A stretch of DNA of 62,882 bases, filler included, from an uncultured Methanosarcinales archaeon (GTDB lineage Archaea; Nanobdellota; Nanobdellia; Woesearchaeales; UBA12501): the NCBI GenBank assembly GCA_964397315.1. It is 6 parts of 6 records of this genome, joined end to end, with 100 filler letters (N's around TTAATTAATTAA, not from the genome) between each part and the next. Parts side by side here need not be neighbours in the genome. Positions count along the whole stretch, not along the records: positions 12,012 to 23,804 come from CAYNHV010000034.1; 5 more parts are not named here. One strand, 5' to 3'. This document shows positions 12,001-18,000 of the stretch, one piece after another. The position numbers were made by a program. Positions within the stretch are counted from its first letter, which is position 1; every line of letters begins with the position of its first letter.

Positions 12001-15000
12001 NNNNNNNNNNNTGATTTAGAATTAGTTGGTGCTATCTCATTTAGAAAATCCCTTCGGAGATACTGTGTCTACCGAAATATTTATAAAGGAACAAACAAAA
12101 TCACACCCTGTAATTGTTATTCACAACCCCAAAACGAGGTGATCAGATGGCAAGAAAAGCATCATTACAGCTTTCTATTAACGCTATAGTCATAGTTGTT
12201 CTCGCTTTCGTGCTTCTGGGCCTTGGCCTCGGCTTCATAAGAAGCCAGTTCAAGGACATTGGCTCAACAACCCAGCAGGTGCAGGAGCAGGTCAAGCAGC
12301 AGATTCTTGAGGACCTGAGGACAGGGGACAAGAAACTCTCTTTCCCCACACAGAGGGTACAGCTTGAGAAAAACGAAGGAAAGGACCTTGCTATTGGCGT
12401 AAAGAACACGCTTCCGCAGGGAGAGCTCAAGTTCTATATCAATTCTTTTGTGGCTCAGGAAAAAGAAACAGGACTTGAATGCGACCAGGATTACAACATT
12501 GGGGACTCCTATTCAGGAATAGCCACAGACTGCCCTGACGGGGAAATAGAGACTCTTGAGTTCTTTTATGATGAGGGCCCTTACACCTTAAGCGTTGCGA
12601 GCGCTGAGGTCTATCCCATAAGCATAGAAGATGCAAAAGGGGAATCAAGCACCTCCCTTGTGAAAGTGAGAATTTATTCTGTGGATGATAGCGACAATAT
12701 ACAATCAGTCTACGCAGAGAAGAGCTTCTTTGTGCAGGTAACATAAGGTGATATCATGGCGCGCCAAAAGAAAAAACTCACTGATCAGCAGGAATTTGAG
12801 ATAATGAAGCTTGTGCTGGACAAGTTCCTCTGGCTGGGCTTCATAGTCATGGCTGTGGGAATGTACATGTTCTTCACAAAAGGGTATGAGGAGCTTTCAA
12901 CAAGCATATCACTGCTTGTCGCAGGAGCCATAATACTGCTCATCTTCATGGTCCTTATTGTGAAGGAGTATGAGATAATAAAACAGTAGCATCATGCAAA
13001 CTCTTTTTTTATTCTTGAATCTTACCTTGTAAAATGGAAAGCAAAAAAGGCATCCAGCTGTCTGTGAACTTTATAGTCACCTTCATTCTAGCCATTGTGC
13101 TGTTCGGCATGGGCATCATGTTCGCGAGGATGATAATGGGCGGGGGAACAGAGCTCTCTGAAAAGACGTATGACCAGTTTGACAAGAAGATAGGGGAGCT
13201 GGCCTGCAGCAGGGGGGAGCATGTTTGCATCGCGGGCAACAGCAAGACCATAGAGAGGGAGAGCGTGGACGTGTTTCCTGTCACAATAAAGAACAGCCTT
13301 CCTGACAGGCTGGACTTCCAGATGAAGGTGGAACTCAGCAGGGCTTTCACAAAGGACAACAGTAAGATTGATGAGAGCAAACGAAAGATTGAATGGATGC
13401 CTGAGGAGGATGTTTTTGTGCTTGAGCCCGGAGAGGAGGCAACAAGGCCCATCCTTGTAAAGCCGCTGGGAGGCACGCTTCCCGGAAGGTACTCTTTTGA
13501 TGTTGAGGTCTTCTCAAAAAAGCCTGATGAAGATGAAAATAAATTCCAGCCATACCCTGATAAAGGGGTGAAGAAGTTCTACGTGACTGTTGAGTGAGTC
13601 ACCTGTTTTCCTTCAGGAACTCCCTTATGAGATCCTCAACCTGGGCTGACATGTTGATGTTGTTCTTTCTGCAGTAGGACCTGAACTTCCCCATAAGGAT
13701 CTCACCTATCGTGAATGTGGCTCTTTCCTTGTAATCTGCCTTTCTCAGCTTTCCTGTCCTGTCCAGCTCCTCAAGAGCCTCAAAGAGGTCCTGGTTCTCA
13801 TTTATTATCTTTCTTGCCTTCTCAGCTATTGATGCCATTTTTTATCATCCTCATTATCCTGTTTATGTCCCTGGCATTCTTTTTTGATATGAGGTATGCG
13901 ATGTTCACCAGCTTCTGCCTGTCATACTCAACACCCTTGTCCTCAAAGTAAAGCAGGACTAAAGCAAGAGCTGTTCTTTTATTGCCGTCCCTGAAAGCAT
14001 GGTCCACAAGGAGGCTTCTTACAATATAACTGAGCTCGTAAAGCCAGCTTTTGTTTTGTTTTATTATGCTGAGCGCGAATTCAAGAGAGCTCTCATTCTG
14101 CAGTTCTCCTGTCTCGCCTATGTCAACATTTATGGATATTAAATCCTTCTTATTTAAATTCATATTAGTATGAATAAGTATGAATAAGTTATATATAAAT
14201 TTTTCGCTTCAGAACCCCTTCACTATCTTCCCAAAGCTCTCTGCGTCAAGGCCCGCGCCTCCCACCAGAGCGCCGTTAATGTTCTTCCGGGCCATTAATT
14301 CCATGATATTGTCAGGCTTCACAGAGCCGCCGTATATTATCCTCACAGAATCCGCAGCGCTGCCGAACATGGATGAGAGGGTTTTTCTTATGAGCTCGTG
14401 CATCTCCTCAGCCTGCTCAGGAGAGGCTGTGTGTCCAGAGCCTATGGCCCATATCGGCTCGTAAGCTAGTGTCACATGCCTCATGTCCTCCTTTTTCACA
14501 TCCCTGAGGCCCTCCTCAATCTCCCTCTCTATGAATTCCTTGTGCTCCCCTTTTTCCCTTGTCTCCCTGCTCTCCCCAACGCAGAGTATGGCATTGAGCT
14601 CGTCAGCAACAGACTTTCTTATCTTCTTGTTGATTATGTCATTGCCCTCCTTGAAGTACTTCCTCCTCTCTGAGTGGCCTATTATAACAAACTCACAGCC
14701 CACGTTCTTCAGCATCTCAGGGCTGACCTCTCCTGTGAATGCTCCTTCTTCCTCCCAGAACACGTCCTGCGCTCCGAGCATTATGTTTGTTCCTTTTATC
14801 ACATGATGCACTTCCTCAAGAGCCGTGAATGGAGGGCACACAAGAATATCCCTGTCATTGACACCCTCAACTATTGCCTTCAGCCTCGCTGCTGTGTTCA
14901 CAGACTCCTCAACTGTCTTGTGCAGCTTCCAGTTAGCAGCTATTAATGGTCTCATGCTCTCCTCTTTTTGCAGGTGATAAGTGCGGTTATGCAAGACCTG

Positions 15001-18000
15001 TATTTTAATGTTATGGCTGCAGAAGCTGCAATAAAGAAAACAATGCTCAGCCACTGGCCCATTGTGAGAGTATAGGAGGGGTCTAAAGTCTGGAACTCCT
15101 TGAAGAACTCAATGAAGAACCTGAGGAAGGAGTAGATAAGCACAAAGCTCCAGAACAAAAGGCCTTCAGGCAGCTTCCTCAGGCTTCTTATGCCAAGCAG
15201 AATCCCGAACACAGCAAGGTTCATCACAGCCTCATAGAGCTGGGCAGGATGCCTCATATTGCTGTCATAATTCTCAAACCTCACAGCCCATGCAGCATCA
15301 GTAACTCTGCCCACGATCTCTCCATTGATGAAATTGCCTATTCTCACGAAAACAGAGCCCAGTGCAATGGGTATTACAGCAAGGTCAGCAATCCTGTAGA
15401 AGCTGATGTTGTGTCTCCTGCAGAATATGAGAGTTGCTATGATACCACCTATGAAAGCTCCGTGGCTGGCAAGGCCGCCCTCCCAGATGAAAAGCATCTT
15501 TAAAGGGCTTGCAAAGTAATAGGCAGGCTCGTAGAAGAGTATCTCGCCCAGCCTTGCGCCTATGATAATGCCCAGGAAGATGTGGATGAAGTAAGAGTCA
15601 ATAGTTGAAGGGGCTATTCCCTCCTTTCCGGCCAGCCTCCTGAGGATCACGTAACCGCAGACAAATGCCAGGGCCATGAGCAGGCCGTACCATCTTATCT
15701 CAAGAGGGCCTATGGTGACTAATGTCGGGTCCATGCAGAAGAGGAGCTGCCTGCTAATTAAAAAGTTAATGGTTGGGGGCCTGTGGCTTTAGAAGACTGT
15801 GATTTTATTTGCTTTTTCTCAGGTCCTGTAATGCCTTGTTCCGTAGCAGTTCCATGATTGTTGTTAAGGATCTATTATCTGCCTATTTTTTTGATAAGTT
15901 CTTCTATAAACCTGTTTATTCTTTCAACAAACGCATTGAAATCACCGCCTAATGGTTTAAGCAATAACTTTTCTTCCTGTCCGACTATGAATTTAGGGGG
16001 CTCTTTCCGCTTTTCCATAAGATTGCCAAGGTATTTCTCATATTTCAGCATATATCCTGTCTTTTCTATTACCTTTGATCCAAAATCATCTATCCTCAAT
16101 CCATCATGCTTTTCTATCATGTAGATATCAATGAAGTCCCTCAGTTTTGATCCTTGCCTTGTCAGTATCGCCCTTGCCTTTTCTATCAAGATCTCCCTCA
16201 CATCATAAACCCAGACCTCTGCCTTCTCAAACACCCACCCCAATTCAGGAAACAGAAACAAGGCCTCCTTTTTATCAATATCTCCTAAAATACTTGGCAC
16301 GGCTTTTTTCAGCTTATATTCGAATTTCTCGACATAATTTACCTGTATCTTTATGAACTGTTCCTCCCCCATCTCTGCAGAGTCGTACCAGAGCTTGAAA
16401 GTCGTGAACCTGCCTCCGCCCCCGAACTCGATGAAGCGGCTGTCTTTCTTGTCCGCCTTAAATCTAAAGCCTGTTTTATCGGCTATTGATTCCAGCAGGC
16501 TGCCCAGCGTGGAGATTTCGCCAGAGATAATCTTTCTTATGCCCTTCTCAGTCTTATCTGCAAATATCCTCTGATTAATCCATGTAAAATCAAGGTCTTC
16601 AGAGAACCTGTAATAGCCAAGATAGCATTTTATCAGGCACGTCCCCTTTGAAAGCATAGTTCCCTGAAAAATGGGCATTTGAGCTTAATTCTACGAGCAG
16701 CCTGTGCAGGAGGAGGTCTTTCTCTATAAGACTTTTCTGCCTTACCTTTGCCTTTTCAGAGACAAAATTGATTATTTCCCTGCTTATCATGCCAACCCCT
16801 TGATTATTTTGATGACTGTTTTTGGATATTTCTTTGAATAATCCATGAGCTTCTTTTTGCTGCAATTCTTGATGTATGGGGATATGTCATCCTTTATCCT
16901 GGCGTCTGAAAGACCATTGTATTTCCCGAAATAAGCCATGTCAAGGACGGTTTTTTCAATGTCTGAATGAGGAAGATCCCCATTTTTTACGCCGAATCCG
17001 AACAGGCCTTTCTTTGCCTTCAGGAACTTTATCTTATGGCCGAATATCTCGAACGGCTTGGGCCGTGATATACTGTCTGAGATGATAAAATCAACTGAGA
17101 AGTATTCATGCGTCAGGTTATTCAGTTTCAGGGCTGTTTCAAGGCCGAAATACCAGTTTTTGACGCCTTTTACGGACAGCGCCTCCCTTATGGCGTCGGC
17201 ATAGCTCATGTCCTCTTTTTTCAGCTTTCTCTCCTCTGTGCTTTTTATGTAAAAGATTCCCCTTAAAACCCTCACTATATATCCATTGGAAAGGAGGTAG
17301 CCTATTGCGGAGTAATAGTTGAGATGCAGGGATCTGCAGTAACCCTTTATTTTATTGCCTACTATGATCTTCCCTTTCTCCATCCCAAGTTTCCTTGCCA
17401 AAAGCTTGTATGACATTTTAAGTTATAATTGTATATATTTTATATAGTTATAATTTAAACCTTATTTATATATTTTTCGGTTTTATCAGCCTTTTAGGCT
17501 TGTGCCTTAACAGGATATATGAATAGATGGGGCACAATGTAACAAAAATCCACAGCTCACAGTTAATAGGCTAAAGGTTTCAAAAAGCTAAGCTTTTTGG
17601 AATACCAAAAATTGAAAATTTTTGATTCATATGGCTTTACGCTACTCGCTTTTGGCAGGCGGATTTTTGGAGCTTTTAAAAGCATCCTCACTAAAGTGAG
17701 GAGCTTTCGGCTTGTTAAAGAACTTGTCAAAAATATATCTTTCATTTACCTTAATCTTGTCAATCCTGCACTCACTTATTTATAAAGAAGTTGTTAAAAA
17801 TAGAAAGATTTATAAATAAACAAAAGTTACATATATTCATAACTTTGGTTAATCGTTAAAATGGCAGAGATCCCGCTGATACTGAAGCTGAGGAGGCAGT
17901 CGCACAAGGATCTGGCCAGGGCGCAGGATATCATTGTCAGGGAGCTGTACAATGTATTCAACAGGCCGGTCCTGCATGGAGGCATAGCCATATGGCGCTG

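Follow-up and report, generated by a model that had tools for sequence, protein, structure and literature searches.

Bacterial-type Lgt and LspA homologues in a Woesearchaeales archaeon point to a two-step route of lipoprotein maturation

The genome of a Woesearchaeales archaeon (DPANN) encodes an intact bacterial-type prolipoprotein diacylglyceryl transferase, Lgt, together with a signal peptidase II, LspA, and we consider it highly probable that the two enzymes carry out a two-step lipoprotein maturation in which AliA has been replaced. The window analysed here, 62,882 nucleotides in length, consists of six concatenated contigs from a 61-contig metagenome-assembled genome (G000; 1.47 Mb, 93% complete, 0.07% contamination), and the lgt gene lies on one of them, contig C34.

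The presence of Lgt and LspA in a DPANN order contradicts recent statements that archaea lack such enzymes. In the available portions of these papers, Lgt is described as “absent from archaea” (mBio 2026), “no homologs ... have been reported in archaea” (JBC 2026), the same statement is made again (Nat Commun 2025), and a review remarks that a signal peptidase II of archaea “has yet to be identified” (Nat Microbiol 2022). The first-pass annotation of this DNA had quoted the literature as knowing no archaeal Lgt homologue, and the quotation is accurate. Both enzymes would also fill a gap flagged in the available part of the AliA paper (PMC12462473), namely lipoprotein-rich archaeal genomes with neither AliA nor AliB. 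Our literature search found no printed discussion of Lgt or LspA in Woesearchaeales; the family distribution of Lgt is probably readable from public domain databases, and its bare presence may be known informally.

Catalytic residues and fold of Lgt and LspA

The lgt gene (positions 14952..15734, minus strand) encodes a protein of 260 aa. In profile searches, the ORF matches TIGR00544 at 199.6 bits (cut-off 118.9; model positions 11–271 of 280), the same figure on which the first-pass annotation had based its claim of a full-length Lgt above the equivalog cut-off, and PF01790 at 240 bits against 24.9 (model positions 1–238 of 240). The product also matches the sequence of Escherichia coli Lgt (5azb) with an E-value of 8.8e-37. 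When aligned to 5azb, its residues Y16, H91, R131, N134, G142 and R205 correspond to Y26, H103, R143, N146, G154 and R239, which are absolutely required in E. coli Lgt according to the available part of a published study (PMC13251419). By E. coli numbering, Y26, R143, N146, G154 and R239 are kept in 49 of 49 archaeal Lgts, and H103 is kept in 47, with F in the other two. The E. coli signature G142-R-L-G-N-F-I-N-G-E151 reads V-R-I-G-N-F-I-N-G-E and the HGGL motif reads H-G-A-F, and both were counted as matches; at the position of G142, V or I is also found in 64 of 64 non-nested bacterial rows of the alignment.

The predicted structure of the Lgt product (pLDDT 93, pTM 0.88) has the seven-helix membrane fold of 5azb, which is its sole PDB match at E ≤ 0.001 (TM 0.80/0.74). 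The archaeal protein and E. coli Lgt (5azb/5azc) share an HMM family, a fold (TM 0.80, 32% identity), six essential residues and the RxGNFxNGE signature, whereas the archaeal protein is about 30 residues shorter and resides in an archaeal host. In their alignment, the periplasmic head segment spans about 18 residues in the archaeal Lgt versus about 41 in E. coli; the compact form also occurs in Bacillota, CPR and Bacteroidota. Judged by its sequence, the lgt ORF is a bacterial-type Lgt that is predicted to be catalytically intact.

The lspA gene lies outside the window, at about positions 8062–8502 of contig C2, and is unlinked to lgt on C34. Its product scores 114.6 bits against 25 in a PF01252 profile search and, on a longer TTG-start ORF, 84.6 against a TIGR00077 cut-off of 73.95; the first-pass annotation had reported 85.7, likewise above the cut-off. 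Alignment to the structures 9emz and 5dir shows that LspA has retained both equivalents of D124 and D143 in the Pseudomonas aeruginosa enzyme, within VTDFI and FNVAD motifs, and we take these two residues to be the catalytic aspartate pair. The archaeal initiation factor gene aIF-1A adjoins lspA on C2, and in 14 of 20 relatives the two are no more than 3 kb apart; the placement of lspA beside a GGPP synthase, as in G000, recurred in none of the 20.

Lipid genes and the lipid donor

The lipid genes of G000 bear on which membrane phospholipid would serve Lgt as donor. The genome contains a single CDP-alcohol phosphatidyltransferase, which best matches an archaetidylserine synthase and shares an operon with CDP-archaeol synthase (CarS); the operon also contains a decarboxylase that best matches the archaetidyl form. 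No PlsC-type acyltransferase was found in G000, and apart from the one CDP-alcohol transferase there was no sign of a PgsA-type gene, whose product would form the head group of the canonical Lgt donor. The first-pass annotation had described the other phospholipid genes as bacterial in type, including a serine transferase, and that description is not supported here: the serine transferase sits in the CarS operon and is closest to archaetidylserine synthase. Because of this operon, and of the missing PlsC, the presence of Lgt in G000 gives no ground for inferring diacyl lipids. Together with the lack of a convincing GGGP synthase, the gene content suggests archaeal-type lipids that are probably scavenged.

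A different picture of these membranes is conceivable from the bacterial nature of Lgt, in which Woesearchaeales build bacterial-type diacyl phospholipids and Lgt moves a diacylglyceryl group from phosphatidylglycerol as it does in bacteria. Of 61 genomes of the order, 34 encode PlsC-type acyltransferases, including tandem pairs and Aas-like fusions, the same 61 genomes yielded no convincing GGGP synthase (partial matches only, of 25 bits or less), and the archaeal Lgts invariably keep the phosphate-binding arginines R143 and R239. Against it stand the lipid genes of G000 itself and the frequency of Lgt across four classes of genomes: Lgt occurs in 12 of 12 with CarS only, 13 of 15 with PlsC only, 17 of 19 with both and 13 of 15 with neither. 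Since it is equally frequent in all four classes, Lgt does not track acyl-lipid genes, and we regard diacyl phospholipids as a possible but rather doubtful answer. As a tentative proposal, to which we give somewhat less than even weight, an Lgt of bacterial fold may use an archaetidyl phospholipid donor in membranes of glycerol-1-phosphate isoprenoid ether lipids, which would yield thioether-archaeol lipoproteins and would have displaced AliA class-wide. The archaeal Lgt is a defined protein with which one can test whether a bacterial lipid-transfer enzyme acts on archaeal lipids.

Distribution, substrates and the maturation pathway

Lgt and LspA are near-universal in the order and in most of the sister orders sampled. 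Among 201 genomes of the order, 189 encode Lgt, 184 encode LspA, 174 encode both and 199 encode at least one of the two, which equals or exceeds the order-level frequencies reported by the first-pass annotation; seven high-quality genomes of the order gave no Lgt match and nine gave no LspA match. The presence of AliA/AliB, which that annotation had left unexamined, was searched for with the DUF63 model (PF01889), a model that matches Methanocaldococcus jannaschii, Haloferax volcanii and Methanosarcina acetivorans as controls. There was no match in G000 at E ≤ 1, and AliA was found in 0 of the 201 order genomes. In a sample of 151 genomes from the phylum, 141 carry Lgt only, three carry AliA only, seven carry neither and none carries both, a mutually exclusive pattern that amounts to a natural experiment in non-orthologous replacement. 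The supplementary tables of the AliA paper (PMC12462473) list 12–60 SignalP6 lipoproteins, with no AliA/AliB, for seven of seven Woesearchaeota genomes, and one of these seven (the record of L035) encodes an Lgt that is 63% identical to the one on C34. The AliA/AliB proteins of H. volcanii (arCOG02177/02178, DUF63) are presumed to do the same job, the thioether lipidation of the archaeal lipobox cysteine, and their sequences are unrelated or marginally related to Lgt (HHpred probability 29% in the available part of PMC12462473). We infer that the Lgt/LspA pair stands in for AliA in this lineage.

Candidate substrates are present in G000. A regular-expression scan, stricter than the one behind the first-pass annotation and distinct from SignalP, was applied to crude longest-ORF gene calls and returned 28 lipobox signal-peptide matches in 1582 genes, one of which is a likely false positive; a set of lipobox proteins was thereby recovered, at a lower count than the 31 reported before. 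Cysteine at position +1 received 18.9 hits per 1% of background versus 4.2 for the next residue, an enrichment of about 4.5-fold. The matched proteins include extracytoplasmic families (PEBP, SurA-like, PKD, CARDB, Kazal and MopE), and the linkers that follow the lipobox cysteine are rich in Ser, Gly and Asp. Lipobox and Pfam scans located three predicted lipoprotein substrates in the window, all on the minus strand and all with no Pfam family: a 192-aa protein with IAG|C at Cys23 (positions 41514..42092, contig C36), a 301-aa protein with MVG|C at Cys19 (46302..47207, contig C37) and a 339-aa protein with LSG|C at Cys27 (48214..49233, contig C37). Export by the Tat system was considered for three twin-arginine lipobox paralogues and rejected, as TatC was not found.

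According to the proposed pathway, about 27 exported pre-proteins with a lipobox-ending signal peptide would be the substrates. Lgt would modify the lipobox cysteine, through a thioether bond, with the glyceryl lipid of a membrane phospholipid, and LspA would then cleave the signal peptide immediately before the lipidated cysteine. Lnt (TIGR00546) had no match at E ≤ 0.01 in G000, a genome that is 93% complete, and the new N-terminus is therefore probably un-acylated. In many monoderm bacteria, Lnt is lacking and the lipoprotein N-terminus is likewise un-acylated. The archaeal system resembles the two-step pathway of these bacteria in having Lgt, LspA and classical lipobox signal peptides with no Lnt found, and it differs from that pathway in that the cell has archaeal-type lipid genes (the CarS operon), that lgt and lspA are unlinked and that lspA is syntenic with aIF-1A. 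It departs from the three-step diderm pathway (Lgt-LspA-Lnt) at the last enzyme, for which G000 gave no match.

Both enzymes could also be real yet repurposed or inactive, with lipoproteins matured by another archaeal system or left without lipid. Genome G223, which has neither Lgt nor AliA, contains two plausible lipobox proteins; the available part of the AliA paper (PMC12462473) proposes further pathways; and the phosphatidylglycerol donor may be missing from G000, given that no PgsA-like gene was seen. We nevertheless judge this improbable: 49 archaeal Lgts show little or no variation at the residues absolutely required in E. coli, both LspA aspartates are kept, lgt and lspA, though unlinked, are found together in 174 of 201 genomes, Lgt and AliA exclude one another in the phylum sample, and lipobox cysteine is strongly enriched in two Lgt-positive genomes. 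The second of these, G275 from another order, has 14 lipobox matches in 855 genes, all credible, whereas G223 has four in 622 genes, two of them plainly cytoplasmic. With G223 as the single negative genome, the comparison is underpowered for both lipobox counts (Fisher p = 0.048 for G000 and 0.097 for G275, each versus G223) and lipobox cysteine share (p 0.18–0.20). The comparative evidence as a whole fits the bacterial-type Lgt–LspA route concluded in the first-pass annotation, and the genes are genuine, belong to the archaeon and occur in nearly all genomes of the order.

Genomic setting and evolutionary origin

Contig C34 is 11.8 kb long with a GC content of 0.42, versus about 0.46 genome-wide; no archaeal marker lies on it, and it continues into an island that looks defence-related or mobile. 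Downstream of lgt lies tpiA (positions 14209..14955, minus strand), which encodes a bacterial-type triosephosphate isomerase (PF00121, 310.6 bits; TIGR00419, 187 against 130.6) that scores only 55 against 132 with the archaeal model NF003302. Because the tpiA ATG overlaps the lgt stop codon by 4 nt (ATGA), the two genes are probably co-transcribed; tpiA is a neighbour of lgt outside the lipoprotein pathway. Their adjacency is common to same-genus and same-family relatives (L006, L009, L004 and L011). Read depth stays uniform over the length of C34, and the junction is spanned by a contig from a third sample. All runs listed for the lgt-tpiA stretch, three in number, are of DNA and come from a single microbial-mat study, with no RNA among them. 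Elsewhere, the neighbours of lgt in eight long-contig relatives are ThrRS, ArgRS, GatAB, ZPR1, Memo and AMMECR1, and no neighbourhood conserved across the order was found in these eight.

An archaeal 16S gene is present in G000, and in G032 Lgt and an archaeal 16S gene occupy one closed contig; Lgt is also found on the closed archaeal chromosomes G041, G101, G113 and G173. The named nearest relatives of the C34 Lgt are from Woesearchaeota, at 63–79% identity, versus 47% or less for bacteria, and identity declines with kinship (64–69% within the genus, 50–79% within the family, 38–47% within the order). Thus, while the short length, lower GC, missing archaeal marker, bacterial-type isomerase and toxin-antitoxin or mobile-looking genes of C34 could point to binning or assembly error, with the contig coming from a bacterium of the same mat and the archaeon having no Lgt, that reading is close to refuted by these closed chromosomes, by homologues whose identity follows kinship, by the recurrence of the lgt-tpiA pair in same-genus relatives and by the even depth, and lgt is not contamination.

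As genes of this archaeal lineage, lgt and lspA probably go back to one or a few ancient transfers from Bacteria, followed by vertical descent throughout the order and most of its sister orders in the class. Before trees were built, L009, L087, L103 and L060 (fewer than 200 aa aligned) and six identical rows were dropped; L254 (176 aa aligned) and two duplicates were removed later. The first tree (118 rows) placed five bacterial Lgts, three CPR-type and two from Tissierellia, deep within the archaeal set. In a second tree, with 22 CPR and 23 Bacillota Lgts added and Bacteroidota thinned from 40 to 10 rows, these five regrouped with their own phyla; a transfer of Lgt from DPANN to CPR read from this nesting was rejected, the nesting being a sampling artefact. 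In the free quick tree, the archaeal Lgts do not come out as monophyletic: their rows are arranged as a grade whose backbone is weakly supported, and one 96% branch joins 20 of them to a Bacteroidota/Bdellovibrionota set. A tree in which all 49 archaeal Lgts were held together had a log-likelihood 5.7 units above that of the free tree (p-AU 0.56), and the test does not reject one clade uniting the archaeal Lgts.

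The Lgt protein and its residence in archaeal chromosomes

The window gene lgt (14952-15734, minus strand), a 260-aa ORF on contig C34, encodes a genuine bacterial-type prolipoprotein diacylglyceryl transferase (Lgt) that is paired with a signal peptidase II (LspA) and is resident in archaeal chromosomes. The window concatenates contigs C33-C37 and C50 of a 61-contig MAG (1.47 Mb; completeness 93%, contamination 0.07%). As the first-pass annotation had claimed, the homologue is full-length: it scores 199.6 bits against the NCBIfam equivalog TIGR00544 (cut-off 118.9) and 240 bits against Pfam LGT (model positions 1-238 of 240), and it matches E. 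coli Lgt (5azb) with E = 8.8e-37. Six residues are described as absolutely required in E. coli Lgt in PMC13251419 (Y26, H103, R143, N146, G154 and R239), and alignment to 5azb shows that all six are retained, as Y16, H91, R131, N134, G142 and R205. An AlphaFold2 model calculated from 49 archaeal sequences (pLDDT 93.0, pTM 0.88) has 5azb as its sole significant PDB match (E = 3e-15, TM 0.80; the next has E = 0.12).

Across these 49 archaeal Lgts, Y26, R73, G99, G104, D129, R143, N146, E151, G154 and R239 (E. coli numbering) are invariant and spaced as in bacteria. Position 103 carries H in 47 and F in the other two, a substitution that the mBio paper (PMC13251419) reports for bacterial Lgts too. 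The median length of the periplasmic head segment is 17 residues; for Bacillota, CPR and the remaining sampled bacteria it is 15, 19 and 18.5, respectively. No feature of the archaeal proteins looks specifically archaeal. Divergent additional paralogues, 28-34% identical to the window Lgt, occur in tandem in two relatives, three in G013 (C10:28118-32517, one with an internal TAG) and two in G007 (C13:15742-17372); G014, G028 and G030 each have one additional family copy.

The LspA gene is on the 114.5-kb contig C2, which is not part of the window, and its product scores 114.6 bits against PF01252. Its 84.6 bits against TIGR00077 exceed the cut-off of 73.95, in agreement with the earlier claim, and it retains both aspartates aligned to D124 and D143 of P. 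aeruginosa LspA, which we take to be the catalytic pair.

The chief risk to this reading is that C34 is a bacterial contaminant. The contig is short, its GC content is 42% compared with about 46% genome-wide, it has no archaeal marker, and it carries a bacterial-type triosephosphate isomerase (TIM), Doc and AbiEii toxin-antitoxin genes and other mobile-looking genes. However, several lines of evidence exclude contamination as the source of Lgt. The genome's 16S rRNA is archaeal (RF01959, 1412 bits, winner of the clan competition), and LspA adjoins the archaeal initiation factor gene aIF-1A (TIGR00523, 115.1 vs 102.9) on its long contig, with no more than 3 kb between the two genes in 14 of 20 relatives from across the order. 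The closest named Lgt homologues all come from Woesearchaeota or Nanoarchaeia MAGs, at 63-79% identity compared with 47% for the top bacterial match, and identity to the window copy drops with kinship. Closed or nearly closed archaeal chromosomes carry Lgt, in G032 on the same single 1.3-Mb contig as the archaeal 16S rRNA, and in eight long-contig relatives the gene is flanked by ThrRS, ArgRS, GatA/B, IMPDH, ZPR1, SepF, Memo, AMMECR1 and ribosomal protein S9. Reads from three runs cover C34 evenly, a contig of a third sample spans the lgt/tpiA junction with identical sequence, and the lgt-tpiA neighbourhood recurs in relatives of the same genus or family.

Distribution of Lgt and complementarity with AliA

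Lgt is near-universal in Woesearchaeales and complementary to AliA, the lipidation component of Haloferax volcanii. In a sample of 201 genomes of the order, including the one under study, Lgt is above the Pfam cut-off in 189 and LspA is matched in 184 (183 above cut-off); among the 153 genomes at least 90% complete, the counts are 146 and 144. Both genes are found in 174/201 and at least one in 199/201, with neither matched in G068 and G126 only. Four genomes of the sample are unpublished (G198, G147, G128 and G137) and all carry both genes; omitting them leaves Lgt in 185/197, LspA in 180/197 and both in 170/197.

The first-pass annotation had left the presence of AliA/AliB unexamined. The AliA-family rows are labelled "DUF63" in the supplementary alignment of PMC12462473, and we searched with Pfam DUF63 (PF01889), which matched the controls M. 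jannaschii, H. volcanii and M. acetivorans. The model has no match in the studied genome at E <= 1 and none in the order (0/201, or 0/197 without the unpublished genomes). A phylum-level sample of 151 high-quality genomes, all from the same order or the same class, contains Lgt in 141, a count not comparable with the 982/1860 of the first-pass annotation; outside the order, 26 of its 34 genomes have the gene. DUF63 is found in three of the 151 (G236, G254 and G257), all among the ten without Lgt, so that 141 have Lgt only, three AliA only, seven neither and none both. The two systems exclude each other in this sample, and we attach no p-value to the table because relatives are not independent. 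Lgt was also matched in 28/41 genomes (27 above cut-off) of the CPR phylum that holds the Nomurabacteria record L090 (G301-G345), vs 39/41 in a Bacillota sample.

These counts correct a statement repeated in the field, that archaea are without Lgt and LspA. PMC12462473 does state, as the first-pass annotation had said for Lgt, that no archaeal homologues of Lgt or Lsp had been identified, and according to PMC7613921 a signal peptidase II of archaea "has yet to be identified". Our full-text literature search, with subscription journals and bioRxiv supplements outside its scope, found no discussion of Lgt or LspA in DPANN or Woesearchaeota. The AliA paper (PMC12462473) describes AliA in DPANN "with some gaps" and several archaeal genomes with lipoproteins but without AliA/AliB, and Lgt and LspA in AliA-less archaea fill this gap that the paper itself flags. 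The supplementary tables of that paper list 12-60 SignalP6 lipoproteins, 29-51% of secreted proteins, for each of seven "Woesearchaeota" genomes, with AliA/AliB at 0/0 in 7/7. One of these seven assemblies is the record of our locus L035, where an Lgt 63% identical to the window's lies on a 64-kb contig.

Predicted substrates and lipid donor

We scanned 1582 crude longest-ORF genes of the studied genome for a lipobox pattern: M, 0-12 residues, K/R, 7-22 uncharged residues and [LVIMFA][ASTVIGL][GAS], then residue X at position 14-40, with at most four hydrophobic residues in the 12-residue stretch after X. With X = Cys, the scan returns 28 proteins, three of them encoded within the window, where the first-pass annotation had counted 31. 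Cys makes up 1.48% of residues and so gives 18.9 hits per 1% background, compared with at most 4.2 for every other residue; the strict box L[AS][GA] gives Cys nine hits and the next residue four. The hits look textbook-like, with an LAG|C or LSG|C ending and then linkers rich in Ser, Gly, Asp and Thr. A Pfam family is assigned to nine of the 28 and none to 19; eight of the nine either belong to extracytoplasmic types or match only weakly (PEBP, SurA-like, PKD/Big, CARDB, Kazal, MopE and a weak OB-fold), and the remaining hit, with an AsnC-type domain, is likely a false positive. Lgt most likely matures the roughly 27 lipoproteins predicted in this way. Three paralogues among them (C16:28016-28996, C48:4335-5375 and C61:17-973), none with a Pfam family, have a twin-arginine-like n-region (SRRSFLYATG...AAA|C); TatC was not found in the genome.

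Two small relatives served as comparison. G275 (Lgt-positive, another order, closed 737 kb) yields 14 hits among 855 genes, each of them credible, and Cys reaches 13.7 per 1% background vs 3.2 for the next residue. G223 (534 kb, neither Lgt nor AliA) has four in 622 genes, two plainly cytoplasmic and two plausible, at 3.7 vs 1.9. With this single Lgt-negative genome, the differences run in the expected direction but are statistically weak (Fisher p = 0.048 and 0.097 for the counts; 0.18-0.20 for the Cys share).

The question posed is a testable one, whether a bacterial lipid transferase could work in an archaeal membrane. GGGP synthase, PlsC-type acyltransferases and Lnt have no match in the genome, nor did we see a PgsA-like gene that would provide the head group of the canonical donor. 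The CDP-archaeol synthase CarS (PF01864, 116.9 bits; NF003114, 144.1 with a cut-off of 148) is in an apparent plus-strand operon on C1 at about 150098-152290 (L145:833-3025), together with a phosphatidyl/archaetidylserine decarboxylase-like gene, a serine transferase and an uncharacterized 146-aa ORF. The transferase, the genome's sole CDP-alcohol phosphatidyltransferase, had been called bacterial-type, and it does pass the bacterial pssA model TIGR00473 (124.2 vs 107). However, its best match is archaetidylserine synthase (NF038087, 139 bits, under the model cut-off) and the decarboxylase best matches archaetidylserine decarboxylase, also under cut-off; from these matches and its shared operon with CarS, we assign the gene to an archaeal head-group operon instead. 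The lack of a GGGP synthase match points to scavenged archaeal lipid precursors whose head groups would be remodelled, and as donor in this genome we lean towards scavenged lipids of archaeal type.

Among 61 genomes of the order, none of which convincingly has GGGP synthase, 31 have CarS and 34 have a PlsC-type acyltransferase. Lgt is present in 17/19 genomes with both, 12/12 with CarS only, 13/15 with PlsC only and 13/15 with neither.

Other functions occur around Lgt in relatives. In G014, 2.5 kb from Lgt, an 809-aa fusion (L118:13218-15647) joins an AMP-binding enzyme, a phosphopantetheine carrier and a PlsC-type acyltransferase, an architecture known from bacterial Aas; G035, G017 and G072 have acyltransferase-domain ORFs of 820-870 aa. 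An exosortase/archaeosortase-family membrane protein directly adjoins Lgt in G038 (L114:10821-12254), and DsbA-like thioredoxins are next to or near it in G014 (L118:10752-11432) and G005 (L117:8122-8838); these are other cell-surface protein maturation functions.

Origin of the gene and its surroundings on C34

A first quick tree of 118 rows, whose bacterial rows were biased to those sharing peptides with the query, split 49 archaeal and five bacterial rows from 64 bacterial rows (SH-aLRT 100%). Each of the five bacterial genomes holds only that one full-length Lgt, and therefore the genes are native there. Their nesting in the archaeal set was rejected as a sampling artefact: once 22 CPR and 23 Bacillota Lgts were included, the five grouped with their own phyla (99%). 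In the enlarged tree, the archaeal rows form a grade between Bacillota/CPR and Bacteroidota/Bdellovibrionota groups with weak backbone support, rows of the order and of other orders interleave, and no donor lineage can be named. The best tree uniting the 49 archaeal rows is 5.7 log-likelihood units above the free tree (p-AU 0.56). A single archaeal clade is the best topology found, not a demonstrated one; it would imply one old transfer, which is compatible with the data.

The lgt stop and tpiA start overlap by 4 nt (ATGA; 14952-14955, minus strand), and GAGGAG closely precedes this overlap. By its scores tpiA encodes a bacterial-type TIM, at 187 vs 130.6 on TIGR00419 and only 55 vs 132 on the archaeal model NF003302. 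Of the 37 relatives' Lgt loci searched, five have a TIM homologue beside Lgt, all from the same genus or family. The two genes are immediately adjacent in four, namely L006 and L009 of the same genus and L004 and L011 of the same family; in L007 the TIM homologue is nearby.

The remainder of C34 (window 13599-14163 and 15875-23616) has a low GC content (0.35-0.41) and looks like a defence or mobile island adjoining lgt-tpiA. It encodes a Doc/Fic toxin with a small ORF upstream, two AbiEii-type nucleotidyltransferases, a DinD/Bro-N-like gene (NF008573, 215 bits, under the 242 cut-off), a PRiA4_ORF3 protein and a DUF6036 nucleotidyltransferase with an HTH partner. At 17577-17646, intergenic between the two AbiEii-type genes, 70 nt are swapped for 18 other letters in contigs of runs X1 and X3, which is a strain variant.
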